DNA of 34,725 bases. Origin: a virus (lineage: Duplodnaviria; Caudoviricetes). The DNA is taken from positions 1 through 34,725 of the IMG/VR virus record IMGVR_UViG_3300025652_008283. One strand, given 5' to 3'. Positions 1-20,900 of the stretch are shown piece by piece. Below the pieces are notes generated by a model. That model saw only the letters and a list, made by a program, of their open reading frames with translations. It was not told the DNA's origin and did not search any database. The position numbers were made by a program, and so were the translations under genes. The stretch's first letter is position 1; each line of letters begins with the position of its first letter.

Positions 1-1200
1 TACTGTATTGGGTATGGTCAAACTCAGCAAAGCCCTACATTCAGCAAATGTGAATTGCTCAATGGTAGTAAAGCCAGCGTTATTTGGGAGGGTGAGACTT
101 TCTGCACTGTCGCAGCCTTGAAATGCTCTTTGTACGATGGTGGAAACACTGTCGGGGATGGTGATGCTCGTCAAGTCGCAGTTTTGGAATGCGCCAAAAC
201 CGATGCTGGTAACGCTGTTGCCGATGGTGACGCTCGTCAGGCTGCTGCTAGAGAATGCGTAACTCCCAATGGTGGTGACGCTGTCAGGGATGATAATGCT
301 CGTCAGGCTAATGCATTGACGGAATACGCTATCCCCGATGCTGGTGAAGTTAACATTATTTGGAAGTGTGACGCTCGTCAGGCTGCATTGAAAGAATGTG
401 TAATCCCCGATGCTGGTGACGCTGTTGGGAATAGTGATGCTCGTCAGGTTAATGCATCGATAGAATGCCTGAGTCCCGATGCTGGTGACGCTGTTGGGAA
501 TAGTAATGCTCGTCAGGCTAAAGCAGCTATCGAATGCGGCACTCCCGATGCTGGTGAAGTTAACATTATTTGGAAGTGTGACGCTCGTCAGGCCAGCGCA
601 GCCAGAGAATGCGCCATACCCGATATTGGTGACGCTGTCGGGAATGGTGATGCTCGTCAGGCTAGTGCAGCCATAGAATGCGTTAGTCCCGATGCTGGTG
701 ACGCTGTCGGGAATGACGATACTTGTAAGAGATTCGCAACCGCCGAATGTATTATTCTCAATCGAGGTAAACGCAGGATTATTTGGAAGCCTGATACTCG
801 TTAGCGCAGAGTAATAGAATGCGAAACTTCCGATGGTGGTGACACTGTCGGGAATCGTGACGCTCTGATTTGTTAAATTATTTCCTGCAAAATTGCTATT
901 GCTAAACGCCGCAAATCCAATGCTGGTTACATTAGTCCCAATATAAATGCTGTCTGGTTGATACGTATTGTAAAACCCATCTGAATTACTAATAGTTGCA
1001 AGATTCCGAGTTTGCTCCACGCCAGCCTGAATATCTATCGTGTATGGGTATGCGGTATCTTTAGAGGCATCACTAAGCGGAAAGTTGGCTAATTTAATTT
1101 TTTTAGTTTTACTTTCGCTGGAGTCTACAACTGGTGAAAAATCTACTGCCGAGTCTGCTGAAGTTATTTCTGTGAGTTCTGATATTTTTTTGTTTGCCAT
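1..1200 (-). CDS. BspA/TpLRR (LRR_5) leucine-rich repeat protein with shared N-terminal module; partial, runs off the window start
   Basis: Not in the ORF track. Manual translation from ATG at 1200: MANKKISELTEITSADSAVDFSPVVDSSESKTKKIKLANFPLS...SIYIGTNVTSIGFAAF...IVIPDSVTSIGTNAFYGCTSLTSITIPDSV...; open to base 1 (...LTIPNTV), 400 codons. Confidence 0.92.
   Translation of the reverse strand, partial: MANKKISELTEITSADSAVDFSPVVDSSESKTKKIKLANFPLSDASKDTAYPYTIDIQAGVEQTRNLATISNSDGFYNTYQPDSIYIGTNVTSIGFAAFSNSNFAGNNLTNQSVTIPDSVTTIGSFAFYYSALTSIRLPNNPAFTSIENNTFGGCESLTSIVIPDSVTSIGTNAFYGCTSLTSITIPDSVTNIGYGAFSGCAGLTSVTLPNNVNFTSIGSAAFDSCFSLTSITIPNSVTSIGTQAFYRCINLTSITIPNSVTSIGDYTFFQCSLTSVTLPNNVNFTSIGDSVFRQCISLTSIIIPDSVTTIGSYAFSSSSLTSVTIGNSVTSIGFGAFQNCDLTSITIPDSVSTIVQRAFQGCDSAESLTLPNNAGFTTIEQFTFAECRALLSLTIPNTV
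334..593. repeat. Exact 50-nt direct repeat inside LRR gene (334-383 and 544-593)
   Basis: cccgatgctggtgaagttaacattatttggaagtgtgacgctcgtcaggc occurs twice, offset 210 nt. Confidence 0.9.
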
Positions 1201-1218
1201 TGTGATTGTGGATTGACT

Positions 1219-1911
1219 TTATATTATGTTAACGGTCACGTTTATGTTCCCGCCAATTGTTTGGCCAGATCCAGCTGTCCAACCCAGTCCAGATGGCGCG
1301 TTTATAGTAAGAGGGGACTGTGTGTTAGTGAAAACATTATCTAGGCCATTTATAATAGAAAAATCTACATTGCAGTTAATTGTCGCTAAGTTAACGCAAT
1401 TACGAAAAGCGTTATCCCCAATACTAGTCACACTGCTGGGAATGGTTAAGCTGTTCAGGGCATTGCAGTTTTGAAGTGCGCCAAGCCCGATGCTGGTAAC
1501 GCTGTCTGGAATATTGATACTTTGGATAGCGGAGCAGAGCCGAAATGCATTTTGACCGATACTTGTGATACCGTTAGCGATGGTTACATCCGTCAGGGCA
1601 TCGCAACGAATGAATGCGGATAACCCAATGCTGGGAACATTGCTCCCAATATAGATACTAGTTAAAGTAGTGTCATCGCCGTAATACTGATTGTAAATCA
1701 ACGGAGCAGTAATATTCCGTGTTTGCTCTACAGCACCGTGAAAGTCTGTAGTGTATGGGTACGCAAATCTTTCAGCCAAATCACTCAGTGGCAAATTACT
1801 AAATCTAATCTTTTTGGTCTCATCTGCGCTGGTATCTACAACAGGTAAGAGGTCAGTTGCTGCGTCAGCTGAAGTTAGTTCCGTAAGTTCTGATGTTTTT
1901 TTGTCTGCCAT
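1219..1911 (-). CDS. BspA/TpLRR leucine-rich repeat protein (short) with shared N-terminal module
   Basis: MADKKTSELTEL...DETKKIRFSNLPLS, then about 5 'IPDSVTSIGxxAFxxCxxL' repeats and a C-cap. Confidence 0.9.
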   Translation of the reverse strand: MADKKTSELTELTSADAATDLLPVVDTSADETKKIRFSNLPLSDLAERFAYPYTTDFHGAVEQTRNITAPLIYNQYYGDDTTLTSIYIGSNVPSIGLSAFIRCDALTDVTIANGITSIGQNAFRLCSAIQSINIPDSVTSIGLGALQNCNALNSLTIPSSVTSIGDNAFRNCVNLATINCNVDFSIINGLDNVFTNTQSPLTINAPSGLGWTAGSGQTIGGNINVTVNII

Positions 1912-1919
1912 ACTATTTA

Positions 1920-1925
1920 TTACAC
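1920..1925 (-). promoter_or_regulatory. GTGTAA motif (putative phage late promoter), 8 nt before ATG 1911
   Basis: Minus strand reads GTGTAA TAAATAGT ATG; the same motif with 8-10 nt spacing occurs at five other starts. Confidence 0.6.
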
Positions 1926-2016
1926 TAAACGTCTTGCTGAAGAATTACTTTAAAGAAGTTTCATCGCGAAAAGAGTGCGTCTTCAGATTTTATTTGCATA
2001 ATTTTAAAAATTCGAA

Positions 2017-2751
2017 TTATAGATCTGCTGTGACGTTAAAGCCTGCATATGTTGATTCGTATGCTGCTCCTTGTGGTACGTGAAATTCAGCATTAGTTGG
2101 CACGTTTGCGAACGTGTTAACTTTAAATGTCGGTGGGTTTTGTGCGTAACAATTAATTCTTGATAGATTGTTGCAGTTAACAAACGAAAATTGGCCCATA
2201 CTAATTACAGAACTGCCAATCGTGATATCTGTCATGGTGGCATTTCCTGCGAAAGCTTGTTGGTTAATTGTTAAAACAGAGTTCGGCACAACAAAAGAAG
2301 AAAGGTCGCAATCCTTAAAACAATAATCAGGAATTTCTGTTATACCTTGGACAATGGTTGCTTTCGTAAGATTGCTGCAGCCTTCGAATGCTTGTGACCC
2401 AATACTTGTAACGCTGTTACCTATGTTGACACTCGTCAGGTTGGTACAGTCCTGAAATGCTTGCGTCCCGATGCCAGTGACAGAAGAACCAAAAAAAATA
2501 GCCTCAATAGAATCATTACTTATAAATCCATCGGTATTACCAATAAATGTTAAGTTTTGTGTAACTGCGCTACCAGCATCAAACCAAGTCGTTGTTAAGA
2601 GTATTTGGCTTAAAAACGCTGAGCTAAGAGGTAAATTTTCTGGTCTTATTTTTTTTGTTTCATTGGCACTGCTATCTGAAATTACCAAAAAATCGTCTGC
2701 CGCCTTTATATAGGTTTCTTCACTTAGTTGTGATATTTTTTTGCCTGCCAT
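2017..2751 (-). CDS. BspA/TpLRR leucine-rich repeat protein with shared N-terminal module
   Basis: MAGKKISQLSEE...ANETKKIRPENLPLS; about 6 LRR_5 repeats; C-cap INCYAQNPPT...HVPQGA..Y. Confidence 0.9.
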   Translation of the reverse strand: MAGKKISQLSEETYIKAADDFLVISDSSANETKKIRPENLPLSSAFLSQILLTTTWFDAGSAVTQNLTFIGNTDGFISNDSIEAIFFGSSVTGIGTQAFQDCTNLTSVNIGNSVTSIGSQAFEGCSNLTKATIVQGITEIPDYCFKDCDLSSFVVPNSVLTINQQAFAGNATMTDITIGSSVISMGQFSFVNCNNLSRINCYAQNPPTFKVNTFANVPTNAEFHVPQGAAYESTYAGFNVTADL

Positions 2752-2759
2752 GAATATTA

Positions 2760-2765
2760 TTACAC
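2760..2765 (-). promoter_or_regulatory. GTGTAA motif, 8 nt before ATG 2751
   Basis: Minus strand reads GTGTAA TAATATTC ATG. Confidence 0.6.
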
Positions 2766-2776
2766 CTAGTTTCTAA

Positions 2777-4966
2777 TTATAGATCTGCTACGACATTTAA
2801 ACCCCCAAATGTTAGTCCATATGCTGTAGATGCAGCTTGTGGTACGTGAATGTCTGTGGTATCTACCCCCGCAAAGACGGAACTTCCAACTGTTGGCGGA
2901 GTAGGCGCGTAGCAGTTAATTGTTGCTAAGCCAGTGCAGTTATTGAATGCGCTATTCCCGATGCTGGTGACGCCAGTGGGGATGTTGATGCCAGTCAGGC
3001 TAGTGCAGTTAATAAACGCTTGTTGTTCCATACCCGTCAAGTTATTGCTTAATATTGCACTCGTTAGACCAGAGCAATTGTTGAAGACGCTGGCCCCAAA
3101 GCTGGTGATGTTGTCGGGAATAGTCACACCTGTCAGGCTGACGTTACCCCAAAATGTTTGTTGTTCGAGTCTTGTTATGCCTGTGCCAATAGTCACATCA
3201 GTTATATCGCTGCAGCCATAGAATACCTGTGTCCCCATGCCAGTAACGCTGTCGGGGATGATGATACCCGTCAGGCGGAGGCATGAAAAGAATGCTTGAT
3301 TCTCGATGATGGTGACGCTGTCGGGAATGGTTATGCTTGGCAGACTTCTGCAGTTCCAGAATGCGGCATCCCCGATGCTGGTGACGCTATTGCCGATGGT
3401 TGCGCTCGACAGGCCAGTGCAGTTAAAGAATGCTTGATTCGCGATGCTGGTGACGCTGTCGGGAATGGTGATGCTCGGCAGGCTAGTGCAGCCAGAGAAT
3501 GCACCATCCTTAATGCTGGTGAACTCAATGTTATTTGGAAGTGTGACGCTCGTCAGGCTAGTGCAGCTTTGGAATGCGTCTTCCCCGATGCTGGTGACAC
3601 TGTCGGGAATGGTTATGCTTGGCAGACTTCTGCAGTAACGGAATGCGTCATCCCCGATGCTGGTGACGCTGTTGCCGAGTGTAACACCAGTCATAGCGGT
3701 GCATTGATAGAATGCGCCCCTCCCGATGCTGGTGACACTGTCGGGGATGGTGATGCCAGTTAGTTCTACGAAGTCTGTAAACGATTCAGCGCCGATGCCA
3801 GTAACGCTGTTAGGGATGGTGATGCTTTCAACGTTGTAGCAACCGAAGTAAGTCCCTGAGTCTATCTGCTCGGTGTTATTTGGGATGTTGATGGCCGCAA
3901 CCTTATCGTAAAAACTAGAGCCAACCGCCTCTAAGTCTAGGCTGGAGCTGTTTAGGGTGATCTCAAGGTTGGCGTTGGTGTTTAATACCGCATCAGCGCC
4001 GATACCTGTAACGCCAGTACCGATTGTTAGCCCCGTCAGGCCAGTGCAGTCTCGGAATGCGGAATCCCCGATGCTGGTGACACTGTCGGGGATGATGATG
4101 CCAGTCAGACTTCTGCAGGAATTGAATGCTCTAACCCCCACACCTGTGACACTGTCGGGAATGGTTATGCTTGGCAGGCTGGTGCAGCTTCGAAATGCGC
4201 TGTTTCTTATATCGACGACATTGTCGCCGATGTTAGCGCCTGTTAAACCGTTAGCATAGAACGAGAAATCTCCGATATATTTTAACCCAGTTCCAATATT
4301 TAAGTTTGTTGCACTCTGGCACACATAGAATGAGCCGAACTCTATACCTGTGACGCTATCGGGAATTATAATTTCACTTAAAGCGGCATTTTGAAAGCAC
4401 CAAGACCCGATATTTTTAAGTTTGTCTGGAAAGGTAATACCAGTTAGGTTAGCACAGTTGGCGAATGCACCACCCCCGATACTGGTGACGCCGTCAGGAA
4501 TGGTGATATTATTTAGGCCAGAGCAGTCATGGAATGTGCTACCTTGGATTTGGGTGACGCCGTCGGGAACGATCATGCTCGTCAGGCCGCTGCATTTGCG
4601 AAATGCGCTTCCCCCGATGCTGGTGACGTTTTTGCCGATGGTCGCGTTACTTAGGTTGGTACAATTGTAGAATGCTTGAATCCCGATACCAGTAACTTCA
4701 ACGCCCATACGGATGGATTCGAGGGTGCTGGAATCATAAAAACCACTAAATTCATCAATATTTTCATAATAACCCACGAAAGAATTAGTTGATTCCGAGT
4801 AAATTGTTTGATTAATTGATTGACTTTCAACTCTTGAGCTGAGTGGTAAATTTTGTGGCCTGGTTTTTTTTGTTTCATTAGCACTAACATCCTCCACTAT
4901 CAGAAAGTCATTAGTTCTATCTACGTAAAACTTTTCATTAAGATCTGTTATTCTTTTATTTGCCAT
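2777..4966 (-). CDS. Long BspA/TpLRR leucine-rich repeat protein (roughly 25 repeats) with shared N-terminal module
   Basis: The track starts at 4984 (TTG), but ATG at 4966 (MANKRITDLNE...ANETKKTRPQNLPLS) matches the paralog starts. 23-aa LRR_5 repeats; C-cap INCYAPTPPT...HVPQAA. Confidence 0.92.
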   Translation of the reverse strand: MANKRITDLNEKFYVDRTNDFLIVEDVSANETKKTRPQNLPLSSRVESQSINQTIYSESTNSFVGYYENIDEFSGFYDSSTLESIRMGVEVTGIGIQAFYNCTNLSNATIGKNVTSIGGSAFRKCSGLTSMIVPDGVTQIQGSTFHDCSGLNNITIPDGVTSIGGGAFANCANLTGITFPDKLKNIGSWCFQNAALSEIIIPDSVTGIEFGSFYVCQSATNLNIGTGLKYIGDFSFYANGLTGANIGDNVVDIRNSAFRSCTSLPSITIPDSVTGVGVRAFNSCRSLTGIIIPDSVTSIGDSAFRDCTGLTGLTIGTGVTGIGADAVLNTNANLEITLNSSSLDLEAVGSSFYDKVAAINIPNNTEQIDSGTYFGCYNVESITIPNSVTGIGAESFTDFVELTGITIPDSVTSIGRGAFYQCTAMTGVTLGNSVTSIGDDAFRYCRSLPSITIPDSVTSIGEDAFQSCTSLTSVTLPNNIEFTSIKDGAFSGCTSLPSITIPDSVTSIANQAFFNCTGLSSATIGNSVTSIGDAAFWNCRSLPSITIPDSVTIIENQAFFSCLRLTGIIIPDSVTGMGTQVFYGCSDITDVTIGTGITRLEQQTFWGNVSLTGVTIPDNITSFGASVFNNCSGLTSAILSNNLTGMEQQAFINCTSLTGINIPTGVTSIGNSAFNNCTGLATINCYAPTPPTVGSSVFAGVDTTDIHVPQAASTAYGLTFGGLNVVADL
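3318..3636. repeat. Exact 37-nt direct repeat inside LRR gene (3318-3354 and 3600-3636; partial third copy 4152-4177)
   Basis: ctgtcgggaatggttatgcttggcagacttctgcagt. Confidence 0.9.
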
Positions 4967-4970
4967 AATA

Positions 4971-6167
4971 CTAAGCCTCTTCAATGGTTAATCCGCCGTA
5001 TTCTCCTTTTATGTCACCTGCATCGAGACCCCTAGCGACGTATGATCCACTAGAGCCGTTTGGAACGATAATTTTTGTTAAGTTGGGACAGTTGTTAAAT
5101 GCATCAACCCCCAATATTGGGGCGTCTACAGCTAAACTAATTAAGTTGGTTAAGGAAGCGGAGCCTCGGAATGCAGCAGCTCCGATGACCTCAACGCTAT
5201 TAGGGATAGTGACGCTCGTAAGGCTATCGAGATTGCGAAATGCGGAAGCCCCGATGCTCGCGACGCTATTGCCAATGACGAGGCCCGTCAGACCAGTACA
5301 GTTTAAGAATGTGTTCTGCGCGATAATTTCAACGCTGTCGGGAATGATAATGTTCTCAAGACTACCACAGTTAGAAAACGTGTTATTCCCGATACTCTCG
5401 ATGCTGTCGGGAATAATAATATCCTCTAAGTTGATACAATTAAAGAATAAAAAATTTGGCATTGTGACGAAATCAATATTATCTGGAAGTGTGATACCCG
5501 TTAGGGCAGTGCAGTTACCGAAAACTTGAGTCCCGATACCAGTGACGCTGTCTGGAATGGTAATGCTCGTCAGGCCATCGCAGTTTGCGAATGCTAGAGA
5601 CCCGATGCTGGTGACGCTGTTGCCGATCTTCGCGCTCGTCAGACCAGTGCAGCCAGCGAATGCGTAACCCCCAATGCTGGTGACGCTGTTGCCGACGTTG
5701 ATGCTGGCCAGGCTGCTGCAGTAATAGAATGCGGCACTCCCGATGCTGGTGACAGAATCTGGAATATTAATACCTTTGCATTTGTCTTGGTCAAAAAACG
5801 CTTCGTCTCCGATATTTGTTATGTTATTAGTTAGAGTGACATAACCACTTATTTTGTTAGTAAGACTTTCAAATGCAGCATCTTCAATTCCAGTTACATT
5901 AGTGCCTATATAGTAGTTATTTTTGGGGTCGTTTTCAAAGAAACCACTGGGTATAGAGGTGAGGTTTAATGCGTTAAATGGTTCAACATTAGACCCAACA
6001 CCAAAAACAAATGGGAAGTTTGAATTTGCCTCAGATAAACTCAGCGGCATATTGTAAGACAAAAATTTATAATTTTGATTGGTAGCACTTCCAACGCTTA
6101 ATAAAGAATCGTTGATTTTGTCAACTAATCCCAATTCTGTCAGTTGTGATATTTTTTTGTCTTCCAT
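4971..6167 (-). CDS. BspA/TpLRR leucine-rich repeat protein (about 12 repeats) with shared N-terminal module
   Basis: MEDKKISQLTEL...YNMPLS; repeats such as IPDSVTSIGSAAFYYCSSL; C-cap APILGVDAF...IIVPNGSSGSY. Confidence 0.9.
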   Translation of the reverse strand: MEDKKISQLTELGLVDKINDSLLSVGSATNQNYKFLSYNMPLSLSEANSNFPFVFGVGSNVEPFNALNLTSIPSGFFENDPKNNYYIGTNVTGIEDAAFESLTNKISGYVTLTNNITNIGDEAFFDQDKCKGINIPDSVTSIGSAAFYYCSSLASINVGNSVTSIGGYAFAGCTGLTSAKIGNSVTSIGSLAFANCDGLTSITIPDSVTGIGTQVFGNCTALTGITLPDNIDFVTMPNFLFFNCINLEDIIIPDSIESIGNNTFSNCGSLENIIIPDSVEIIAQNTFLNCTGLTGLVIGNSVASIGASAFRNLDSLTSVTIPNSVEVIGAAAFRGSASLTNLISLAVDAPILGVDAFNNCPNLTKIIVPNGSSGSYVARGLDAGDIKGEYGGLTIEEA

Positions 6168-6176: not shown

Positions 6177-6182
6177 TTACAC
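6177..6182 (-). promoter_or_regulatory. GTGTAA motif, 9 nt before ATG 6167, embedded in an inverted repeat
   Basis: Minus strand reads GTGTAA AAATACACT ATG; 6168-6183 is agtgta-tttt-tacact. Confidence 0.6.
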
Positions 6183-6491: not shown

Positions 6492-6860
6492 TTATTTGTA
6501 TATTGACTGGCGTATTGTTTTGGCGGGTTTATCAGAAAACTGCTCTACATATTTTACACCCGCATAATATATATCAGTAGGACTTAGGTTATTTTTATAA
6601 AAGCCTTTTCGGGGAGGCCCTATTTTATTTACTATTTCGCATTTAATATATTTATCAAAAAACTCTAATTCTTTAAAAAAATGTATTTCAGCTACATCTG
6701 GAGTAACTTGCGCGTGACCCATGCCAAATTTTTTGTGGCAAACAATATATAATCCAGGATGAGTCTTGGATTCGTTGTGGGTGTTTATGGTTGGAAATCC
6801 TAACTTAGAGCTTAGACCCATGCCTTTGAAGACTTCACCAAATATGAGGTTTTTATTCAT
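6492..6860 (-). CDS. Stand-alone riboflavin kinase-like protein (flavokinase / RibF C-terminal fold)
   Basis: GEVFKGMGLSSKLGFPTIN...PGLY...EIHF resembles the flavokinase pattern GxVxxGxGRGxxLGFPTAN...GVY...ExH. Confidence 0.7.
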   Translation of the reverse strand: MNKNLIFGEVFKGMGLSSKLGFPTINTHNESKTHPGLYIVCHKKFGMGHAQVTPDVAEIHFFKELEFFDKYIKCEIVNKIGPPRKGFYKNNLSPTDIYYAGVKYVEQFSDKPAKTIRQSIYK

Positions 6861-7470: not shown

Positions 7471-7994
7471 TGTTTTATCTTTCGTTTTAGCACTGGATAT
7501 GATAGTTTATTTTTATCTAAAGAGAACTCTATACTAAACAAACACCTCTCTCCTTCAAAATTATAAACGGCGTGTGGAATTTGGTTGTTGAATAAGTAAA
7601 ATTTATTTATTTCATAATCTAATTTTTCAAAATTAGCATAATGCGTAGGTGGCTTTCCATCTTTACCTAGTTGGTTTTGGAGAACCTCCTCAGAAAACAG
7701 AGTGACCGAGTTCGTATGGCTCAATAACACGTTTATACAGACACCTCGGCTGACATCTTTGTGAAAATTATACAATAGATTGGGCGACATTTTAATAATG
7801 CCACATTTAAATGGCACTAGCTCATAAAGCCAACAGAGGAATGGATTATCTTTAACGAATTGCTCTTCGCTTTCTTTTTCAAAGGGGTAAACATAAAACC
7901 CGTTATGGTTATACGAATCGGATTCAATATTGAGATTAGATAGATTTATATCTTGGTCGCAAATTTTAAAATAATAATTATCAGCAGTTTCCAT
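7443..7994 (-). CDS. Fe(II)/2OG dioxygenase-like protein (AspH-like cupin)
   Basis: FHKD..RGVCINVLL...YLFNNQIPHAVYNFEGERCLFSIEF. Confidence 0.72.
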   Translation of the reverse strand: METADNYYFKICDQDINLSNLNIESDSYNHNGFYVYPFEKESEEQFVKDNPFLCWLYELVPFKCGIIKMSPNLLYNFHKDVSRGVCINVLLSHTNSVTLFSEEVLQNQLGKDGKPPTHYANFEKLDYEINKFYLFNNQIPHAVYNFEGERCLFSIEFSLDKNKLSYPVLKRKIKQWKTSTTDI

Positions 7995-10069: not shown

Positions 10070-10075
10070 GTGTAA
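10070..10075 (+). promoter_or_regulatory. GTGTAA motif, 8 nt before ATG 10084
   Basis: Plus strand reads GTGTAA TATATAGC ATG, in a 33-nt divergent intergenic gap. Confidence 0.62.
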
Positions 10076-10083
10076 TATATAGC

Positions 10084-11130
10084 ATGGCTAATGGAATAAA
10101 TCAGGATTTTGCGAGGGCTATTTTGGATGTAGAACCTACGGCTTTATTAGAGTTGTATACATTATACTACGACTACCAGAATGATTCTCAAGCGCAAATT
10201 AATTTTCATGCAGGGACTAATGGTCTTGGGGGACCAATCGTGTTTGATGGGCAAGAATATTTACCCATACCTGTTGAATCTGAAGGGTTTGATTTATTGG
10301 GAGATCAAAGGTTGCCGAGGCCAATACTAAAAGTATCTAATGCTGGGTTATATATTTCATCTCTTTTAAGAAGGTATGAAAACCTGAATGGAGCAAAAAT
10401 AGTGAGAAAAAGAACTTTTTTAAAGTTTATAGACGACTCAAATTTCTCAAATAACCAAAACCCTTGGGGGGCTGCTAATCCAAGCGCTAGAATGCCAGAC
10501 GATAAGTTTTTTATATCAAGAAAAATATCTGAAAATAAAATGGCTGTAGAATTTGAACTCGTTTCGAGTTTAGAGTTGGAAAATATTGAAATCCCAGCAA
10601 GAAAAATCTCTTCTAGGTATTGCTCTTGGATATATAGAGGGTTTGGGTGTAGGTATGGGTATAATAAAACCACAGCAAAAGCCGATAGACCTATCGGGAC
10701 TGCCGACGATTTAACCTTTGTAACTGGAGCTGGTACAGCATTTAGACTAAATAGTGATTTAATACCTGGATCACATCCACAAAGAACTAGTGTTGATGCA
10801 TGCATAACAGCCGAGGGTCTTTGGGAAACGGGTAAATCTTATACCGTGGGGGATTATGTTTTTAAATTAAGCGATAGAGTGAATGAGGGTCAGGGGCTAA
10901 CTTCTAATTATTACCAACAACACCCAGTTTATTATATTTGTAAAAAGGACCACACCTCGGTTAGTGGTCTAAGTCCAGACAAAAACCAAGATTCTTGGGT
11001 AAAAGACGAGTGTTCTAAAAAATTATTTGGGTGCAAATTAAGGTTTGCTAATGATGATTTTGGTGGGGTAAATAACAACAAAAATCTACCATACGGCGGA
11101 TTTCCAGGAACAGAGAAATATTCCTACTAA
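10084..11130 (+). CDS. Lambda gpL-like minor tail tip protein with inserted domain
   Basis: LELY...YLPIPVESEGF...PRPILKVSN...GAKIVRKRTFLKFIDDSNF...VEFELVS..E; four-Cys motif C-W-YRG-GC...C-K-L-GCKLRF...YGGFPG. Confidence 0.92.
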   Translation: MANGINQDFARAILDVEPTALLELYTLYYDYQNDSQAQINFHAGTNGLGGPIVFDGQEYLPIPVESEGFDLLGDQRLPRPILKVSNAGLYISSLLRRYENLNGAKIVRKRTFLKFIDDSNFSNNQNPWGAANPSARMPDDKFFISRKISENKMAVEFELVSSLELENIEIPARKISSRYCSWIYRGFGCRYGYNKTTAKADRPIGTADDLTFVTGAGTAFRLNSDLIPGSHPQRTSVDACITAEGLWETGKSYTVGDYVFKLSDRVNEGQGLTSNYYQQHPVYYICKKDHTSVSGLSPDKNQDSWVKDECSKKLFGCKLRFANDDFGGVNNNKNLPYGGFPGTEKYSY

Positions 11131-11504
11131 TGAGCATAAAAAGAAAAATAGAATTAGAATGCGAAAAAGACACAACACAAGAACGTTGTGGGTTTATAAT
11201 TTATAATGATGGGGAACTAGACTTGGTCATGTGCGAAAACCGTGCGGAAGATAAAAAAAATCAATTCTATATCCCAGCAAAAGAGTTTCTATATATGAAA
11301 AACAAATCAGATATAGTCGCTATATATCATTCTCATAACGATGGGACAGAAAAGCCTTCTCCTTTTGATTTGAAATCTTCGGATATCACTTGTTATCCAT
11401 TTTTGATTTATTGCACAGTTAATAACAAATTTAGCATATCTGTGCCAGAGTTTTGTGACGCAGGTGACAAACAGTTAGATATGTTAAAAAAGGAGGTGTT
11501 ATGA
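11130..11504 (+). CDS. Lambda gpK-like JAB/MPN+ metallopeptidase (JAB domain only)
   Basis: ERCGFI...IYHSHND...PSPFD fits the E...HSH...S..D JAMM motif; follows gpL; no NlpC/P60 domain. Confidence 0.88.
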   Translation: MSIKRKIELECEKDTTQERCGFIIYNDGELDLVMCENRAEDKKNQFYIPAKEFLYMKNKSDIVAIYHSHNDGTEKPSPFDLKSSDITCYPFLIYCTVNNKFSISVPEFCDAGDKQLDMLKKEVL

Positions 11505-12064
11505 CAGAAATAAGATTACACGGTTTAGTCGCTAAAAAATTTAAACCCGTACACAAGATAGCGAACATAAAAAAACCAACGGATGCTATTTTAGCTGTTG
11601 ATGCTAATTATGATGGTTTTAAAAATTTCTTTTTAAAAGAGGCCGAAAGAAACAATTTCTATCAGATTGTAGTGAACGGGGATTTGGTTGAAAACGCAAA
11701 CCAAGCTTTAGAAAAAAAAGAAATAAAAACAATTGATATTGTCCCTTACATCGGTGGGTCTGCCCCCTTTATCGTGCCTTTTCTGATCACTATGGCTATA
11801 GGCTTGGTTATGGCTGGAATACAGTACTTGATGACCCCGATACCAGAAAACGAACCAAAGGTTGCTGTGGCTCAAGTGGGGGGTAAGTCTTTTTGGTTCT
11901 CTTCTAAGGGGAACTCTTCGTCTCAATTTAGCTCTGTCCCAGTAGGGTACGGAGAATTGAGGGTGGGGTCGAAAACGATAGAAACTGAAATTGAAGCTAT
12001 TGATAGAAATTCAGAAAACTCAAATCCGAACGGGTTAAAATCGACAGAAGGTTCAAGATATTAA
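11501..12064 (+). CDS. Lambda gpI-like tail assembly protein 1 (ubiquitin-like N-terminus)
   Basis: IRLHGLVAKKF...IDIVPYIGG, hydrophobic stretch, LMTPIP, VPVGYGELRVGS. Confidence 0.88.
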   Translation: MTEIRLHGLVAKKFKPVHKIANIKKPTDAILAVDANYDGFKNFFLKEAERNNFYQIVVNGDLVENANQALEKKEIKTIDIVPYIGGSAPFIVPFLITMAIGLVMAGIQYLMTPIPENEPKVAVAQVGGKSFWFSSKGNSSSQFSSVPVGYGELRVGSKTIETEIEAIDRNSENSNPNGLKSTEGSRY

Positions 12065-12066
12065 TA

Positions 12067-12753
12067 ATGAAAACAAAAATAAAACTTTACGGTAAATTAA
12101 AAAAAATATATGGGGAATCTTTTGAATTTGCCAATATTAAAACACCTATGGATGTGGTCAAAGCAATGAATACATTATTTCCAGGTTTTAGAGATTATGT
12201 TGTCAGCGAAGCTAAAGCTGGCGGGCATTATGAAATAATAGTAGATGGCGAATCAAAAAATGTACTTGAATTAAACCAAAAATCTCCCAAAATACAAGAA
12301 GTACAAATAACTCCCTGTTTGATTGGTAATGGTTTTGCAGCTATTGTTATAGCTATAGGTGTTGTGGCTGTTGGTGTAGGGTTAGCTGTAGCCAGTACTG
12401 CTTTGGCGGCTTTTTTTATTACTCTTGGTGTAGGTTTGATTATCGCTGGTATTATGTATCTTTTGACGCCTATACCAGAAAACGAACCCCAAGAGCAGAA
12501 CATAAAAGCTTCAATAAAAAATTCATCATTTCTTTTCCAAAACCCAAGAAATGTATCAACACAGGGCAGGGCTATACCAATTATTTATGGGAGATTAAAA
12601 GTTGGATCTTATGTTGTGGGTACGTCTGTGGTAAATTATCCACTACATCTTGATTTGCAGCTACAAAGACGGTTTATAGCTAATAGAGCGAATGCGTTAT
12701 TGAAAATTCAAGAGTCTTTTGGATCATCTTTTTCTGAGTTATATAAAATATAA
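12067..12753 (+). CDS. Lambda gpI-like tail assembly protein 2
   Basis: IKLYGKLKKIYG...ITPCLIG, G/A-rich hydrophobic stretch, LLTPIP, QGRAIPIIYGRLKVGS. Confidence 0.88.
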   Translation: MKTKIKLYGKLKKIYGESFEFANIKTPMDVVKAMNTLFPGFRDYVVSEAKAGGHYEIIVDGESKNVLELNQKSPKIQEVQITPCLIGNGFAAIVIAIGVVAVGVGLAVASTALAAFFITLGVGLIIAGIMYLLTPIPENEPQEQNIKASIKNSSFLFQNPRNVSTQGRAIPIIYGRLKVGSYVVGTSVVNYPLHLDLQLQRRFIANRANALLKIQESFGSSFSELYKI

Positions 12754-12755
12754 TA

Positions 12756-15700
12756 ATGAAAGATTATATAATAAAAAAATACAAAAGATATAACGAATTT
12801 TCTGTATTTGGCGCTGGCGACGAATTAAAAGATTATTATAAGAGTCTACAGGCAAACGCTGATAGATTAGTGGGTGTATTTACAAGACTGACCCCGCCGT
12901 ACGCTTCTCAATTAAAACTTTCAACAGCTAATTTAAATGCTATTGATTTAGTGTCTGAAGGGCCAATTGAGGGTTTTGTAAATTCAAAAGGTTTATCTTG
13001 TAATATTTTAGAGGCGACATATCTAGATAATACTGTTGTGGCCGAACCACAGTTATCGAAAACGACAGCCAATAATTTAACTACTAGTCTTTTGAAAGGG
13101 ATCGTCTATGATTTTAAACCTTTTGTAAAAGAGAGGTTAGATAACTATATGATAGAACTACAGAATCGTTTTATTCATAAAGAAGAGCCTTGGTATCAAT
13201 GGTTAGCTCAATCGGGTGGATATGCGCCGAAGAATAATAAAGTCTTGAATGGTCGTTATGCTGGCATAATTCCATCATCAATCGGTACAGTAACTAATAT
13301 CCTTAATTGCACCTCATTCGGTACTCTAAATGGCAGATATTCGGGCGGTCTTACGAATTTATCATTGCTAGCTAATGTTGGAGCGTATTGGGGTAAATAT
13401 TATAGATCATTTAATCAAAATGATTGGTATTTGGGGCTTAGGTATACTAATGGTACCCAACCTGCTGCGGACTGCGACCTCTCCTTTCAAAAGTGTGGAC
13501 ACGGTTACAGGAAAAGCCCGTACTCTGGTAGAAAGATTTACCATCCCGATGAAGTATGGCCAGAAAGGACGATGTCGGTCCCTTCGACTCTTGCGTTCCA
13601 ATTTGACCCTAGATATCCAATAGTATATAAAGGGTCTTATTCTAGAGGAAACGGGATTACACAAAAGGGAAGAGTAGACCGCCCTTTTAGTGCTAGAGCG
13701 TTTTTCTCTTTCCCGTCGTCACCCACAGCATATGGACCCGATCCAGTGTCAAACAGTAGTGGTAGAAGTTGGTATTTATGGGTAATCACTGCTTTGAGAT
13801 TAGCGAGTTATAAGCCAACTACATGGACCTTTCCAAACGGCCACCCAGTTCACTATAGAAATTTTTATACCGAAAGCACTTATCCAGAAGGTTTAAAAGA
13901 ACCAATTATAAACAATATCGCAAAAAAAATAAATGAAATGGGCGAGGATTATTGGAAGCCTCATAAATTTTATAATTCGGACCCATCAATAATTGACCCT
14001 CCAGTGGTTATGGCTGATGCGTGGCCAAATACTCTTTATAACAACTGGTTGCAACCAGGCTCCTCAACCCACGTAGCTTTAGGTAAAACGCAGATAGGTG
14101 GTTTATGGGCAGACACGTTTACTGTAACCACAAATAACGCAACAGCCATCAATATAACGAAACAAGACGGTGGAGACGCGGACGCTGCATTAAATCGTCC
14201 ATTTGATTCTGGCACAAGATACAGGTTTACTGGAAAAATCTACATACCATCTAACCAGGGAATAGATATGGTTCGGTTGCGGTTTCTGGACTCTTACTAC
14301 GGCACCAACAACCAAACAGCAGACAACAAATGGGTCGATATATCTGGGGGGACAGCAGAATGTCCATTTAACCAGTGGAATAATTTTGACATTACATTGA
14401 GGACGTGGCCAGATCGAAAATCACGTTTTATGATTCAAGGATATAGCGGGACGACTAATAACCCAGCCAACGCAAACGGCGCATACTGGGCTTTGAATAA
14501 TCTAACTGCTCTTGAAGAAACAAAGGGCGTAGAAGACGCTATCCCAAATACTGGAAGTTTTGCATATATGACTTTCGACGCTCAGGACTTTTTTGGCACA
14601 ACAAATTTTAAAAAAAACTACGAACTAACATACTCTGTTGGTGGTGGTAGGCTCGAACTCAATGACCCAAATGGGTTACAATACTCTTACCCAGAGGTAA
14701 CGGGTTTTGATTTATCGCAAAAAAGTTTCAAAGAATCTATAATTTGGAAGAACCCTATTGCAGCGACAACGTGTGACAAAAGAAATCGCACTCCTTATCA
14801 ATATCCCACTATTACGGGAGCAACGCCTGCGGTTAATTATGGAATTTCTTTAGAAGAGTCTGAATCAAATAAATTCAAGGGTGCTTTTTTATACCCAGTG
14901 TATCTCGGGGAAGATTTCGTACCACTACAGATAAATGGGGAAGTTAATACTGGGAAGATATTAATCTCCACGTCAGATTCTGCGGCGATAAGTGGAGCGA
15001 AAGTTGCTAGTGGAGTTTCTAACAATTATGATGTATTTTCTCTCGTAGGCCAAAATATCTCTTACGTTCACGTAGCTAATCCGAATATTAAAGTACCAGA
15101 TGTAGAGGTGTTAAATAAACCCATATCACTGAGATTGGTTGAAAAGGAGCCGACTCTTTTTAATTTTACAAATTTCGATGCAGAATTTAATTTGGGTGAA
15201 GAGGATCAACCACCACTAAATAAAGAAAGCATCTCGTCAATTGATTACAATAAAGCTTTGTATGGGCCAAATAATCCAAATCAACCTTTCGACGACACCA
15301 TATATACGGGCGCTTCTGATTCTAGTGATTCTCCAATTCTAATAAAAGGTGGGGCGAGCTATAGCGCTCTTGCGGGTAATTCTAGCGTGGATGTTCAGTC
15401 AGATGGAACGCAAGATTTCCAGTCCGATTGGATGGCGAACTTACCTTTAGACAGAGACGGTATTGATATAACCCACAGAGTCGAAAGAAAAGATGTAGAT
15501 TCTGTCATAATAACATTTGTTATAGAGCAGTTATACCAAGAAATACTTTCAGAGCAAGACCTTTTGGGGGTTTCTGTAAAATCGAACCCATTGGCGATAA
15601 ACTTTTCTGTATTTTGTGGTTTTGATGGAGTACCAGAATATGAAGAAGAAGAAACAAAAATAAGCTACTTCGGCATGGTTTCATCTTTTTATGCGGTAGA

Positions 15701-17570
15701 TACAGAACAAATTGTTTTACCTTCGTACGACGAGATAAAGAGTATTTTTCCAAACGAAGATACGCGCAGTTTATCTGCAAGATTCCCGAGAACGGTAAGA
15801 ATTGTTAAAAACGATTACGAAACAAGCTCAACTAGAATGGGCAGATCGGCTAGGCTATTCCAAGTTAAAGAAATTATCAAAGAGGCTTTTTCATACCCAT
15901 TTTCAGCTGTTATAAAAACAAAAATAGACGCCAGAACTTTTACAGATCCGCCCAATAAACAATTCAACCTTAGGCTTAAAAAAGTTAAAATACCTTCTAA
16001 TTATTTCCCATTAGATTTGAGGGGCAAAGATAAAAGGTTTGTTGAAAATGCCGAAGACTTAGGAACAAGGGTTATTTATGATGGAGACTGGGACGGAACA
16101 TTTAAAATTGGATGGACTGATAATCCCGCTTGGATTCTCTACGATCTTCTAACTAGCCAAAGATACGGAATAGGTAATACTATAGATAATTTAGAAGATA
16201 TTAATATATTTAATTTATACAAAATAGGTAGATATTGCGATGCGGTTGACGGAAATGGTAATTTCGTTGGACTCTCTAATGGTTTGTTGGGGTTAGAGCC
16301 TCGATATTCTTGCAATATTATGCTTGATGTATCGGCTAACGCATTTGACTCAATTAAAGATATAAGCTCTGTATTTAATGGTATGGCGTTCTGGGCAAAT
16401 GGGGCCTTAGATTTTTTTACAGATCAACCTAAAGAACCCATGATGTTTTTTAGTAATGGAAATGTTTTTGACGGTATGTTTAATTATCAATCGACCAATA
16501 AATCTTCCCTTTTCAATGTCGCCGATGTCGCTTATGCAGATAAGAGGGATAACTTTGCTGTTAAAACAGAAAGCGTAATTGATGAAGAGGGTATGAGGAA
16601 AAACGGCCTACAAAGGAGGGTGGTGACCGCGAAGGGGGCGACAAGTAGGTCTCAAGCAAGAAGATTAGGCAAATACATCTTATATTCAAATAAGTTAGAA
16701 AGAGAAATAGTGAATTTCAAGACATCGGCTGAAGCTTTAATGGTTTCTATTGGTGATATTATTGAGATACAAGATGAATTGAAGAATTTTAATATAAGTT
16801 ATGCAAAAGCTATAGAAATTGGGACAAACTACATTACTTTAGAAAATGGGCCAAGCGCAAGTTCAATACTTAATAATAATAGCGGTATTTCTGTTATTGT
16901 TCCAACTGGACAGGACACATTAAATGAACTGCATGATTATACTTTAAGTGGTGGTCTTATAGGAGAACAAGAGTTGCATGAATTTTATACACCTCAAGTA
17001 AAAAAATTAAAAATAACTGGGGTTTTAGACTTAGATGATAAGATCAAAATACAAATAGAAGACCCTTCTGGCTATCTTCCGTATGTGCAAACTGGATCTT
17101 TTGTTAATCTCGATTTAGAGAATAGAAATATAAAACAATACAGAGTATTAACACTAACGCCAGAGCAAGATAATCTTTATTCAATTTCTGCGACAGAACA
17201 TAATAAAGAAAAATTTAATTTAATAGAAGCAGAAGATAATTTTACTTTGGATGAGGTTGAACCGTTTAACATTGGAATTTTAGATAATGAAATTAAAACA
17301 TTAACTGAGCCAGAGGGTTTTTCTACTTCTATAATTAATACTACATATAATACGCAAAAAATAAACTTCACAGTGTCTGGAAACTTAACAGGTAACGAAA
17401 ATGCATACGAAGTTACTTTAATTCACCCAAACGGTAAGATAGACAATAAAAAAATAGCCAAACAAGCAAATGTAGAAGCTGGTTATTTCAAAACAACTGG
17501 GACGTTCCACGATGTGATTACTTATGGTAATCATATATTTAAAGCAAAATCAATAAATAGACATGATTAG
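12756..17570 (+). CDS. Lambda gpJ-like central tail fibre/tip protein 1
   Basis: IDLVSEGPIEG; YP; IPSNY; YDGDWDGTFKIGWTDNPAWILYDLL..RYG; YCD; EPRYSCN; GATSRSQARRLGKY; C-terminal FN3-like region. Confidence 0.93.
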   Translation: MKDYIIKKYKRYNEFSVFGAGDELKDYYKSLQANADRLVGVFTRLTPPYASQLKLSTANLNAIDLVSEGPIEGFVNSKGLSCNILEATYLDNTVVAEPQLSKTTANNLTTSLLKGIVYDFKPFVKERLDNYMIELQNRFIHKEEPWYQWLAQSGGYAPKNNKVLNGRYAGIIPSSIGTVTNILNCTSFGTLNGRYSGGLTNLSLLANVGAYWGKYYRSFNQNDWYLGLRYTNGTQPAADCDLSFQKCGHGYRKSPYSGRKIYHPDEVWPERTMSVPSTLAFQFDPRYPIVYKGSYSRGNGITQKGRVDRPFSARAFFSFPSSPTAYGPDPVSNSSGRSWYLWVITALRLASYKPTTWTFPNGHPVHYRNFYTESTYPEGLKEPIINNIAKKINEMGEDYWKPHKFYNSDPSIIDPPVVMADAWPNTLYNNWLQPGSSTHVALGKTQIGGLWADTFTVTTNNATAINITKQDGGDADAALNRPFDSGTRYRFTGKIYIPSNQGIDMVRLRFLDSYYGTNNQTADNKWVDISGGTAECPFNQWNNFDITLRTWPDRKSRFMIQGYSGTTNNPANANGAYWALNNLTALEETKGVEDAIPNTGSFAYMTFDAQDFFGTTNFKKNYELTYSVGGGRLELNDPNGLQYSYPEVTGFDLSQKSFKESIIWKNPIAATTCDKRNRTPYQYPTITGATPAVNYGISLEESESNKFKGAFLYPVYLGEDFVPLQINGEVNTGKILISTSDSAAISGAKVASGVSNNYDVFSLVGQNISYVHVANPNIKVPDVEVLNKPISLRLVEKEPTLFNFTNFDAEFNLGEEDQPPLNKESISSIDYNKALYGPNNPNQPFDDTIYTGASDSSDSPILIKGGASYSALAGNSSVDVQSDGTQDFQSDWMANLPLDRDGIDITHRVERKDVDSVIITFVIEQLYQEILSEQDLLGVSVKSNPLAINFSVFCGFDGVPEYEEEETKISYFGMVSSFYAVDTEQIVLPSYDEIKSIFPNEDTRSLSARFPRTVRIVKNDYETSSTRMGRSARLFQVKEIIKEAFSYPFSAVIKTKIDARTFTDPPNKQFNLRLKKVKIPSNYFPLDLRGKDKRFVENAEDLGTRVIYDGDWDGTFKIGWTDNPAWILYDLLTSQRYGIGNTIDNLEDINIFNLYKIGRYCDAVDGNGNFVGLSNGLLGLEPRYSCNIMLDVSANAFDSIKDISSVFNGMAFWANGALDFFTDQPKEPMMFFSNGNVFDGMFNYQSTNKSSLFNVADVAYADKRDNFAVKTESVIDEEGMRKNGLQRRVVTAKGATSRSQARRLGKYILYSNKLEREIVNFKTSAEALMVSIGDIIEIQDELKNFNISYAKAIEIGTNYITLENGPSASSILNNNSGISVIVPTGQDTLNELHDYTLSGGLIGEQELHEFYTPQVKKLKITGVLDLDDKIKIQIEDPSGYLPYVQTGSFVNLDLENRNIKQYRVLTLTPEQDNLYSISATEHNKEKFNLIEAEDNFTLDEVEPFNIGILDNEIKTLTEPEGFSTSIINTTYNTQKINFTVSGNLTGNENAYEVTLIHPNGKIDNKKIAKQANVEAGYFKTTGTFHDVITYGNHIFKAKSINRHD

Positions 17571-17949
17571 ACACACAGTAATGATTTTACCCCCCGTTAA
17601 AAGGGATATACAGATTTCGACGATATTATCTAATGACTCAGTTGTGTCAGAATTTAATAGAGTTAAAAGGTTTGCCAAAATTAAAAATAACTCAGGGAAA
17701 CTATACATCAAATTTTTCATAATGGATATGAAAACGATGCATAATGTTGGCGTTGATTACCCTAATTTATATCTAGATAGTCATTTGTATGACGAATCAA
17801 CTAAAGATTATACAAGAAAACATTTAAAATTTAAAAAAGATAGCGTTATTATAGACACAAAGTTGTTTAAGACTAAAAAAATAAAATTTAGGGTATCATT
17901 AATAGACCGAGGTCAAGTAATTGACCAATGTTTTATCGATATAGTGTAA
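17563..17949 (+). CDS. Hypothetical protein, possibly the detached C-terminal domain of gpJ-1
   Basis: Overlaps the gpJ-1 stop; weak by-eye similarity to the last ~130 aa of gpJ-2. Confidence 0.65.
   Translation: MIRHTVMILPPVKRDIQISTILSNDSVVSEFNRVKRFAKIKNNSGKLYIKFFIMDMKTMHNVGVDYPNLYLDSHLYDESTKDYTRKHLKFKKDSVIIDTKLFKTKKIKFRVSLIDRGQVIDQCFIDIV
17944..17949 (+). promoter_or_regulatory. GTGTAA motif, 10 nt before ATG 17960
   Basis: Plus strand reads GTGTAA TATAACTAGG ATG; it doubles as the last codon and stop of the upstream ORF. Confidence 0.55.
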
Positions 17950-17959
17950 TATAACTAGG

Positions 17960-20900
17960 ATGAGGGATTATAAAAAATATTTAAAGGATAAATTAAGCCA
18001 ACCAAAAGCAGTAATAGGTTCAGCTATCTTAAACCCACCTGCTGGGGGTCAGTTAGGGTTACAATCTTCAGCCTCTATGGCTGTTTTAGATTTGGTTTCT
18101 GAGGGGCCTATTTATGGTTTAGTTGACGGCAACGGCAAGAAAACAAACAATATGAGTGTATTGGAGTCTTTGTATTTGAACGATACCGCTGTTTTGGGTA
18201 AGAGTGTAAGTGAGGCGCAGATAAGAAATTTAAATTACAGCCAAATACAATCAGTCAATAGACTTAATTCTCAAAATATAGAAACAGCTTTTAACAATAT
18301 ATCTGGTGAGCTGAGCGCTCACGCGTCGCTCAACTTGAACAACCCAAGCTTTGCTGAGATTAAAATAAATCAATTAAAGCAGGAAAAGGAAACACTTAAA
18401 GAATTTATAGACGAAAACCCTTCATTACAAAGGTTTGGGTTTGCTCAATTTAAATTGTCTGGAATTTTCCCAACTGGGGACGAAATATATTCAAGGGTAC
18501 AAAGTACTCAGTTTGAAGTTAATCAAAACTTCACCGATACTTATAATGCGACCACTTTTGATTTGAATGTCTATAATGGAACAAACCTTTCTAAAAGAAC
18601 CATAAAAAACGAAGAAAACGAAAGTATTGAAATACCAGGTTCTTTTGTCTATGGTTATCAATCATTTAATGATTCTATATATGGCGGTTACGCTTCAGCC
18701 CCAAATACTCTTCAGGTGGATCAAGATGGCAAAGTCGGATTGAAATATTTGATAGATGGGTTTGCTGGCGGAGGAATGTTTTTTTTCGAGATGGGTGATG
18801 CGCCGAGTGCGGCAATTTCGCGTTTCTTTGTAGACAAAACCGACGCCAATTTAACTGGTAAATTGCAAAGCGGTAAAACTTATGGTTATGATGTTTTTGT
18901 TTATGATACCACAGGGATTTCATTAGAAAAAGCATCCCCAAACCAATCCAACCCAAGTGCTGGTGAGGTAAACGGAAAAAACATTGGACTAGGTTACATT
19001 AGCGATTCGGATTTTAAATACAATTATGGTAATATAGATTTTGAATTTAGAAACGGTCACGAGTTCCAATCAGTTATGGACGGGCATTCTGATGGTACTC
19101 TGGATTTTAATATAAGAAAAAAATTATATGGACCCTTGCAGTATGGTGGTAGTGCAACGTCTGAAGACGGATATTCAGACCCAAGAGAGGGTGGAGACTT
19201 CTCCGATTGGATGCTTAATCCGCCGCTAGAGTCGGACTCTTATCCATACACCCACACAATAAAAAGAAATGAAGTAAAGAAATGTTTCCCCACAATAGCT
19301 ATTGAGGCGCTGAGTGATGTGATTTCCGATGGCGAAGACGCTGGTGTCCAAAGAGCAGAAACTCTTTCGTTAGCACTGGTTTATGGTTTTGAAGGCGGGG
19401 TAACTGGAAGTGTCGGGGAGCTTTTGTCTGGAGGTAATTCTCTTCAAGAGGTAGCTCTAGGTTTGTATGAAACTACTGAAAATATTCAGTATAATGGGAT
19501 AGTGGTATCAAACTATCTTGATACGTATTCTGGTATTGGGGATTTGCCAAAAAATAAAATTTTAAAAGATTTAAAAGTAAATGCCACTGATGTTCCTGGA
19601 TTAACCTCATCGCTAATAACTCAATTTGGTTATAATTCCGAAGATTATATATTTCCTGGGGAAGATTGGAAAGTGGCGAATAGGTTTTTAAGAATAGAAA
19701 AGTTAAGTTATGAAACAGATTCCACGCTAATTAGCAGAGACTGCTCTCTCAGTTATGTAACAGAAACAATTGGAGACAACTTCAGTTACCCACTTGTCGC
19801 TTTAGCGGGTACAATCTTTGACGCTAGAAATTTCGCAGCCCAGCCAGAAAGAGACTACGAAGTAAGGGGGAAGTTGATCTCAATTCCATCTAATTATGAA
19901 CCGTTAAACGAAGATGGATCTGACAAAAGATTTGTAACAAATTCTAATCAATATGGGTTAAGAGATGTGGTGAAGTTTGGCGTAAATAGTAGAGCAAGCA
20001 TTCTTGATGCAATTTCTATAGGAACTGACAATTTTGAAATTTCTTTTAAATTTAAATGTGACACATTAAGAACCACTGATTTTGGAAATTACATTTTCTC
20101 AAATGGCCCTCAGTCAAGCGATGACTTCCTGACATTTTTTCAACTCAAAGGTGAATTTGTACTTGCAGGTAATTCTCCTGGAATAGAAAACGATATTTGG
20201 ATTCCTTTTACTTATTCAGAAATCGGAGCTACTGCTGATAATATTTTCGAAGTTTCTATCAAGTGTGTAGATAAAAAATACACTATGGATATAATGATTA
20301 ACGGTGTATTAAAAGGATCTAAATCAAGTTCTTACAATAATGCTCGGCGCAGTTTTACTTGGGATGATTTTACAATATGCGCTTATAATTCAGTAACTAG
20401 TGTAGAGATAGCTGATTTTAAGATCAAAAAGAATAACCAATTATTACATTTTTTTGATGGCACAGTTATAGACACAACAAGAAGCGGCCCGTGTTTAAAA
20501 GATAAATTTGGAGGATCACACGCCAAATTGCAAGTCATATCTGGCATAGGGAATGGGACGTATTCTACTGTAAAAGATTCGACATTTAAATTTGGCAAAA
20601 ATAAAGCCGCAATTTATAACGGAGCGTGGGACGGAACATTTAAACTTGGTTGGAGCGATAACCCAGCTTGGATTTTATATGATCTAATGATTAACCCTAT
20701 CTATGGAGTTGGAAATAATTTAGATAATAGAGAAGACATCAATATATTTAATTTATATCAAATAGCTAGATATTGTGACGCGGTTGATGACGAGGGGTAT
20801 TTTGATGGTTTACCAGATTCAACTAGGGGTTTAGAGCCGAGATTTTCCTGTAACCTAAGAATATATGAGTCAAAAAATGCTTTTGAGGTTATTGGTAATA

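Follow-up and report, generated by a model that had tools for sequence, protein, structure and literature searches.

A shared N-terminal module in an array of phage leucine-rich-repeat proteins, and an acidic peptide as its candidate docking partner

Cellular BspA adhesins carry an export signal or a cell-surface anchor; the variable lymphocyte receptors (VLRs) of lampreys arise by somatic assembly of an incomplete germline gene with flanking leucine-rich-repeat (LRR) cassettes, their variable residues lying on the concave β-sheet. Excerpts of two reports on branched systems of receptor-binding proteins (RBPs) (Klebsiella KP32/KP34, G7C and K1-5/SP6 phages) describe a short conserved N-terminal segment that docks a binding protein on a particle-bound partner (PMC6872550, PMC13352976), and an excerpt of a third describes trimeric phage side fibres as an N-terminal attachment domain with a variable C-terminal binding part (PMC13243795). 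Here we describe five consecutive minus-strand genes, A to E, which encode BspA/TpLRR proteins with one shared N-terminal module and lie at the left end of IMG/VR virus record IMGVR_UViG_3300025652_008283 (positions 1 to 34,725; this whole stretch of 34,725 nucleotides (nt) is referred to below as the window). The window, a single contig, comes from a large aquatic phage of siphovirus-like type and encodes a tail-tip block, DnaE, an exonuclease and a Clp-type ATPase (Pfam and PHROG scans). We think it probable, with moderate confidence, that the LRR proteins are accessory binding fibres in which three modules clasp one acidic three-repeat peptide of a likely structural protein.

The array resembles branched RBP systems, as the excerpts present them, in the conserved short N-terminal segment on binding proteins and in the possibility of several exchangeable heads. 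In those systems a folded T4 gp10-like branching domain of the first RBP serves as socket, with a peptide that varies from one phage group to another. The candidate socket in this array, in contrast, is a 24-residue acidic peptide in many unrelated structural proteins, the plug (the module) is one family, and the heads are LRR_5 repeats, not depolymerases or tailspikes. Since the candidate partner, a short peptide on a protein of ~120 amino acids (aa), has no T4 gp10-like domain (the rest of the phage genome lies outside the window) and the heads are not depolymerases, we do not count the locus among these systems. With trimeric side fibres the array shares an N-terminal attachment part and a variable C-terminal binding part, and may share the trimer, which was imposed in the model below; unlike the fibres in the excerpt, its proteins have no shaft between module and head, stand as several paralogues in a row and carry a module without a Pfam or PDB match. 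The likeness to BspA/TpLRR proteins (LRR_5; 6mlx, 4fs7, 4gt6) lies in repeat consensus and fold, but the array is phage-encoded, lacks a hydrophobic export or anchor segment and is fused to a phage fibre module. The genes are as follows; the repeat numbers are loose counts.

1..1200, minus strand: gene A, module and at least 15 LRRs; cut by the contig end and open at base 1
1219..1911, minus strand: gene B, 230 aa; module, about 4 LRRs and cap
2017..2751, minus strand: gene C, 244 aa; module, about 6 LRRs and cap
2777..4966, minus strand: gene D, 729 aa; module, about 26 LRRs and cap
4971..6167, minus strand: gene E, 398 aa; divergent module, about 12 LRRs and cap; first gene of the array

All five genes passed the curated LRR_5 cut-off of 27.7 bits, with 97-893 bits (Pfam). 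The four complete genes end in a cap, as the first-pass annotation of this DNA had it, and the caps are of two types, one in B and another common to C, D and E. The same annotation saw no signal peptide; in agreement with this, a hydropathy scan, crude and not a signal-peptide predictor, found no hydrophobic stretch in the array proteins (highest 19-residue value 1.41). Gene D starts at the ATG at 4966 and not at the TTG at 4984 given in the list of open reading frames (ORFs), and plus-strand ORFs across the array (1-804 and others) were rejected as shadows of the repeats. In the related contigs L015 and L016, gene B has orthologues of 90-91% identity, and gene A orthologues of 610 and 354 aa, respectively.

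The shared module, also recognized in the first pass, covers the first 43 residues of A-E; 10 columns of their alignment are invariant. The module of E diverges most and has no D26, T32 or K33. Residues 1-48 of B are the chain used for the complex model below.

1072..1200, minus strand: N-terminal module ('plug') of A
1783..1911, minus strand: N-terminal module of B
2623..2751, minus strand: N-terminal module of C
4838..4966, minus strand: N-terminal module of D
6039..6167, minus strand: N-terminal module of E

A profile search, of the kind that the first-pass annotation had suggested for finding module fusions, recovered the module, which is not confined to LRR proteins, in 12,443 protein clusters at E ≤ 0.001, often on tail-fibre-like proteins; it was N-terminal in 122 of the best 150 clusters, and LRRs were present in 6 of the 150. 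Viral contigs contain at least 600 matches to the module pattern; among the first 600, 235 held up on confirmation, and 79 loci were retained. Viral loci yielded 91 distinct module proteins, 74 without LRRs and 17 with LRRs, the 17 all in phages like the window phage. Among 38 non-LRR module proteins scanned, 29 matched tail or virion PHROGs, 2 matched unknown families only and 7 nothing, and 4 ended in an S74 chaperone. The slot beside gpL holds the module with a non-LRR head in L069, L002, L003 and L009. Modules scanned alone matched phrog_35419 (tail fibre) best (8 of 50, E 0.0014 or weaker), and weak matches in cultured phages were found in cyanophage KBS-S-2A (CPKG_00003, annotated as tail fiber protein; E 0.04), Methylophilales phage Melnitz and DSL-LC05, the last of which has the acidic peptide described below two genes upstream; a second tblastn against cultured phages, with another module, gave no match, and no cultured relative with the LRR array was found. 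Records resembling sipho-, myo- and podoviruses all contribute to the family. A strict pattern run against 185,579 prokaryotic genomes found 16 module loci, all in assembled metagenome bins, and 11 of the 16 had head, tail or lysis neighbours among 31 proteins scanned. Since the prokaryotic loci are few and lie in phage gene blocks, the module does not occur mainly in cytoplasmic cellular proteins, a distribution that the first-pass annotation had named as speaking against a virion role. Together with the fibre-like proteins, this agrees with its proposal of a virion anchor.

Modelled alone, module B has a hairpin at 21-36 flanked on either side by a short helix (predicted local distance difference test, pLDDT, 80). 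The module matched no Pfam family, PDB sequence or PDB fold (Foldseek pdb, VIA wide), the query for the fold search being a 48-residue model, a weak query whose null result does not show a new fold. BFVD returned 0 matches at E 0.001 and weaker matches to phage proteins only. A search for homologues of B residues 1-45 among longer proteins found none, which we take as a limit of sensitivity because the profile search found 12,443 clusters. Identity with DUF685 (PF05085) was not confirmed (0 of 76 module sequences match at E up to 1); the module has a feature-level resemblance (0.94) to one ESM Atlas cluster, 35% of whose members are DUF685 (Spirochaetota), which is a lead only. Internal tandem modules reach 24 stretches per protein, with no acidic peptide in the same chain. 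Proteins P0001-P0005 and P0007, of 900-3300 aa with 10-24 internal module copies, are probably very long fibres built from the module.

The candidate partner is an acidic peptide of 24 residues, three 8-residue repeats of the pattern (L-L-x-E-D/N-G-x-x)x3. Of 83 genes directly upstream of a module gene, 40 ended in this peptide, and these belong to 8 of 27 unrelated families; the background was 2 of 1138 genes. The pattern was chosen after the upstream genes had been seen, and was therefore tested on new samples. A search with the peptide only returned 123 loci, 82 with the peptide near the C-terminus and 41 with it internal. The next gene started with the module in 29 of the 82, a count that excludes ~17 more next genes that look like divergent modules by eye; the 3 control matches among 159 segments were the three annotated records fetched for the module. 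Where the peptide is internal, its carriers are gpL, gpJ or neck proteins; in such records the module was encoded elsewhere in 9 of 10, versus 3 of 49 gpJ-motif controls (Fisher p 1.7e-7, with records treated as unrelated and kinship uncorrected). The internal-peptide sample was the 10 records >20 kb among the first 80 listed; records were chosen at ≥12 kb among the first 80 listed, and L287 and L262 were left out of the control set. The sole peptide-positive record among the 49 controls was the one with strong module matches.

Among 31 proteins scanned that carry the peptide, which were selected for length, the best PHROG match was a tail, connector or head family in 16, an unknown family in 5 and none in 10. 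The matched families were gpL, gpJ, head-closure, tail-terminator, baseplate-wedge, major-tail and virion, and none of the 31 had a named non-structural best match. In the clade of the window phage the carrier is a 107-132 aa protein (the 'socket' gene), present in 5 of 5 relatives searched. It lies directly upstream of LRR genes in L016, L020, L022, L392, L402 and L409, and far away in L015 and L028. A PDB sequence search with the peptide gave no match, and Atlas matches to the clade socket protein were at most 0.85. A 151-aa gene near the capsid gene of L020 showed no similarity to the socket protein. The clade family has an 85-aa core and three kinds of C-terminus, namely none, the acidic peptide, or an extra domain of ~180 aa (L003 1628-2237, L008 7291-8103), and by its make-up looks like a decoration protein with exchangeable extensions.

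We modelled the module as an oligomer with such a partner, as the first-pass annotation had advised, using three copies of window module B (residues 1-48, no LRR body) and the L016 peptide. The complex scored 0.66 (runs 0.65, 0.71, 0.66) versus 0.24 for the best of 3 controls; among reference cases, 116 of 157 solved complexes reached the score mark, as did 2 of 215 mismatched pairs, figures that are only roughly valid for this job. Contacts agreed between runs by ≥90%, with pLDDT ≥73 for the partner and 78-81 for the modules. In the model each copy contacts the peptide via residues 1-9, 23, 25 and 30-32, and peptide residues 10-12, 18-20 and 26-28 touch module residues 4-6 of copies 3, 2 and 1, respectively. 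One peptide repeat thus falls on each subunit, the threefold register that was expected before the run. A search of the PDB for a similar complex gave none, which lowers, but does not abolish, the chance that the prediction passed by recall of a known structure. The predicted interface residues are more conserved (0.76 versus 0.50), but positions 1-9 are the search pattern, so this was not used as support. The model supports the predicted binding of module and peptide.

The LRR bodies are the other half of the proteins. The model of gene B, the only one made, is a TpLRR solenoid with pLDDT mostly 88-97 in the LRR part and 4fs7 and 6mlx as best Foldseek matches (E about 5e-6); B and D score far below the cut-off of HupY/LrrG and Gli349 models. 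Over 186 repeats variability peaks at positions 15, 16, 19 and 20, with 3.0-3.6 bits and many large residues such as Y and R, and it is low on the strand; positions 2, 3 and 5 have 0.8-2.0 bits. The β-strands of the gene B model are repeat positions 3-6, and the variable positions lie off the strand. Comparison of alleles gave, for the 123 codons at the four variable positions, 36 nonsynonymous and 8 synonymous changes; the figures are 25 and 39 for 563 codons at other repeat positions, and 9 and 10 for 263 codons of the module. Repeat number also varies: alleles of A have 354, >400 and 610 aa, those of D 729 and 864 aa (L388), and gene D in a contig of run X6 is a net 420 nt shorter within the repeats. 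In a phylogeny A and B group with their orthologues in L015 and L016, whereas C, D and E form long branches of unsure placement.

The accessory-fibre reading would unfold as follows. The array proteins combine the shared module, the LRR body, the cap and an upstream motif common with tail genes, and the module would be an attachment part, as it heads fibre-like proteins of many unrelated phages and co-occurs with the peptide. The peptide itself is found within, or at the end of, proteins of the tail tip, tail tube, neck, head closure and baseplate. Each of its 8-residue repeats is predicted to touch residues 4-6 and T32 of one module copy, so that one monomeric peptide would hold one trimer. 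In this clade the socket would be the C-terminal tail of the 107-132 aa protein, encoded elsewhere in the genome of the window phage. The LRR bodies may bind host-surface ligands via repeat positions 15, 16, 19 and 20, and would have diversified by ordinary recombination between repeats, gene duplication and selection. Of the virion-displayed variable binding set imagined in the first pass, the proposed anchor is supported, with a module that behaves like one and a docking-partner candidate that has model support; the VLR-like part is not supported.

A bolder extension strikes us as possible, and no more than tentative. The peptide would be a portable pseudo-threefold socket, usable in almost any particle protein for any module-headed trimer and shared by thousands of phage families, and five or more LRR chains would form mixed trimers (35 compositions from five chains), giving each particle combinatorial binding heads without a diversity-generating enzyme. 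If true, a 43-residue plug (>12,000 clusters) and a 24-residue socket would explain head swapping between phage types, virion appendages could be recognized among many hypothetical genes, and the peptide-carrying gene would indicate where they attach. The few systems in which accessory-fibre attachment is understood each use an adaptor of their own. An LRR array alone is the less surprising part; the notable one is a widespread plug and an acidic socket, backed by genomic tests in both directions and by a symmetric model. We found no description of the module, the peptide or tested phage BspA fibres in the literature (mainly non-subscription journals, without supplements), and excerpts of PMC11445458 and PMC12796354 hold nothing comparable.

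Several observations weigh against the accessory-fibre reading. None of the 41 internal-peptide loci has a module within its 300-1500 nt flank. With pattern and profile fixed, the peptide was directly upstream in only 16 of 75 metagenome module loci (background 5 of 587, four of these being adjacent genes missed by the ORF picker), and in only 5 of 16 module loci on genome contigs (somewhere in the locus in 8 of 16). The socket gene of L010 is not followed by a module gene, and the LRR genes that the close relatives L002, L003 and L009 carry in this slot lack the module. The peptide has no match in the 34,725-nt window, nor was it detected by pattern search in the tail-tip block; the CheckV values of relatives suggest that most of this phage genome lies outside the window. 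Because of this missing match, window gene B was paired with the peptide of a relative. The 3:1 ratio was imposed, the score covers the partner only, and a single ratio and a single module were modelled. Module E, which lacks T32, may dock differently or not at all, and the module can apparently serve as a plain shaft unit, because it occurs as internal tandem repeats without the peptide in the chain. The clade socket protein has no family or structure match (PHROG, NCBIfam, PDB), and we know of no TpLRR protein that is a trimer. The dN/dS of ~1.5 at the four variable positions versus ~0.2 elsewhere in the repeats, a rough hand calculation and no proof of positive selection, uses positions chosen from a set that includes the compared alleles, and allele pairs that are not independent.

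These observations bear on a second account, in which the virion does carry the LRR proteins but the module does no more than trimerise them, as a fibre knuckle; attachment would take another route, and the peptide would co-occur because both belong to the same kind of decorated particle. The tandem copies in long proteins, the window without a peptide and the many module genes without an adjacent peptide gene all fit this account. Against it speak the co-occurrence of module and peptide in both directions and across unrelated carriers, and a model that puts one repeat on each subunit and beats its controls. We regard it as unlikely, if worth keeping in mind.

The proteins might instead act in, or at the surface of, the infected cell as decoys, receptor masks or defence inhibitors, with the module a relic of a fibre origin. 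Such a role would suit BspA-type LRRs as general binding scaffolds, the shortness of B and C, and the position of the genes, which are encoded on the other strand than the tail-tip block and behind small non-structural-looking genes. The module is, however, conserved in all five genes and between alleles, the socket gene stands directly upstream of LRR genes in the six relatives listed above, and the array shares the motif GTGTAA with tail genes. Confirming the first-pass annotation, which reported this motif before three array genes, gpL and gpJ-2, we found it at a distance of 8-10 nt from the start codons (ATG) of B, C, E, gpL, gpJ-2 and a gene at 32823, on their upstream side:

1920..1925, minus strand: GTGTAA, 8 nt upstream of the start of B
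2760..2765, minus strand: GTGTAA, 8 nt upstream of the start of C
6177..6182, minus strand: GTGTAA, 9 nt upstream of the start of E
10084-22582 (10070..22582 with the motif), plus strand: lambda-type tail-tip block of gpL, gpK-like JAB, two gpI and two gpJ (Pfam and PHROG), with GTGTAA before gpL at 10070 and before gpJ-2 at 17944

An ATG lies 8-11 nt behind 7 of the 17 GTGTAA sites in the window, versus 1.09 expected, and the motif is likely a late-expression signal. We consider an intracellular role distinctly improbable.

A programmed diversity system, either VLR-like cassette assembly or a diversity-generating retroelement (DGR), could also make the LRR variants. The four very variable positions per repeat would suit it, as would a third codon base of C or T in 75-87% at these positions. 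Like lamprey VLRs, the array comprises several capped LRR solenoids with differing repeat numbers and surface residues. In contrast to VLRs, it belongs to another LRR class and varies off the concave strand, the strand positions being conserved; every gene is complete, and no LRR cassettes were found outside genes, all repeat copies found lying inside ORFs. No RVT_1 reverse transcriptase was found in the window or in 5 relatives that are 14-64% complete. Adenine mutagenesis of AAY codons, the DGR rule, would not give Q, E, K, M or W, which make up 6-14% of residues at the variable positions. We hold such a system to be very unlikely; the variation fits ordinary recombination and selection on a binding surface.

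That misassembly fused a piece of host DNA to a phage contig here, a thought prompted by the array's GC content of 40-51% against 28-33% over the next 4 kb and raised in the first pass as a possible refutation, is scarcely credible, as run X3 contigs span the junctions A/B, B/C, C/D, D/E and E/upstream phage gene, the separate metagenome contig L388 repeats the order E-D-C-B, and other phage contigs hold orthologous arrays. Run X3 has the year and habitat of the best-matching run and possibly belongs to one campaign with it. RNA run X8 also contains the array as contigs, which is not a demonstration of transcription.

Related phages have 1 to 4 such LRR genes per locus. The window makes up an entire contig, L393 being identical to it in sequence and length. 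The order in L015 and L016 is B, A and then a third module gene, so a sixth module gene is likely in the array of the window phage. Behind the array there usually stand a sulfotransferase-like gene of 266 aa (weak NoeE match) and a 130-192 aa gene with weak tail-fibre matches (L015 13602-14974; same place in L019, L022, L024, L401 and L404), and this pair likely also lies beyond base 1 of the window. In L002 (1363-2250), L003 (1-684) and L009 (5061-6101) the same slot holds a module-bearing non-LRR fibre, then an LRR gene with a different N-terminus. In some relatives (L020 1767-11617, L392) the socket gene and LRR array stand beside an apparent head gene block and not gpL; the cassette, found beside one or the other depending on the relative, therefore moves within genomes.

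Next to the array in the window are a short riboflavin-kinase-like gene (6492-6860; PF01687, E 1e-5) and four adjacent genes of 177-205 aa (6853-9068) with H-x-D/N and a later H, which presumably resemble 2-oxoglutarate Fe(II) oxygenases; these four gave no Pfam, PHROG or NCBIfam match. The two gpJ-like genes of the tail tip encode 1604 and 1540 aa, and the doubling of gpI and gpJ is also seen in L002, L003 and L009. DnaE is apparently split into a core (29587-32157), a separate exonuclease (32840-33490) and a separate PHP-like gene (33472-34152; weak N-terminal match to phrog_405). PEP-CTERM-like genes in the related phages L009 (917-1552) and L390 (16709-17329), with scores below the cut-off, hint at a host with exosortase, for example Verrucomicrobiota.

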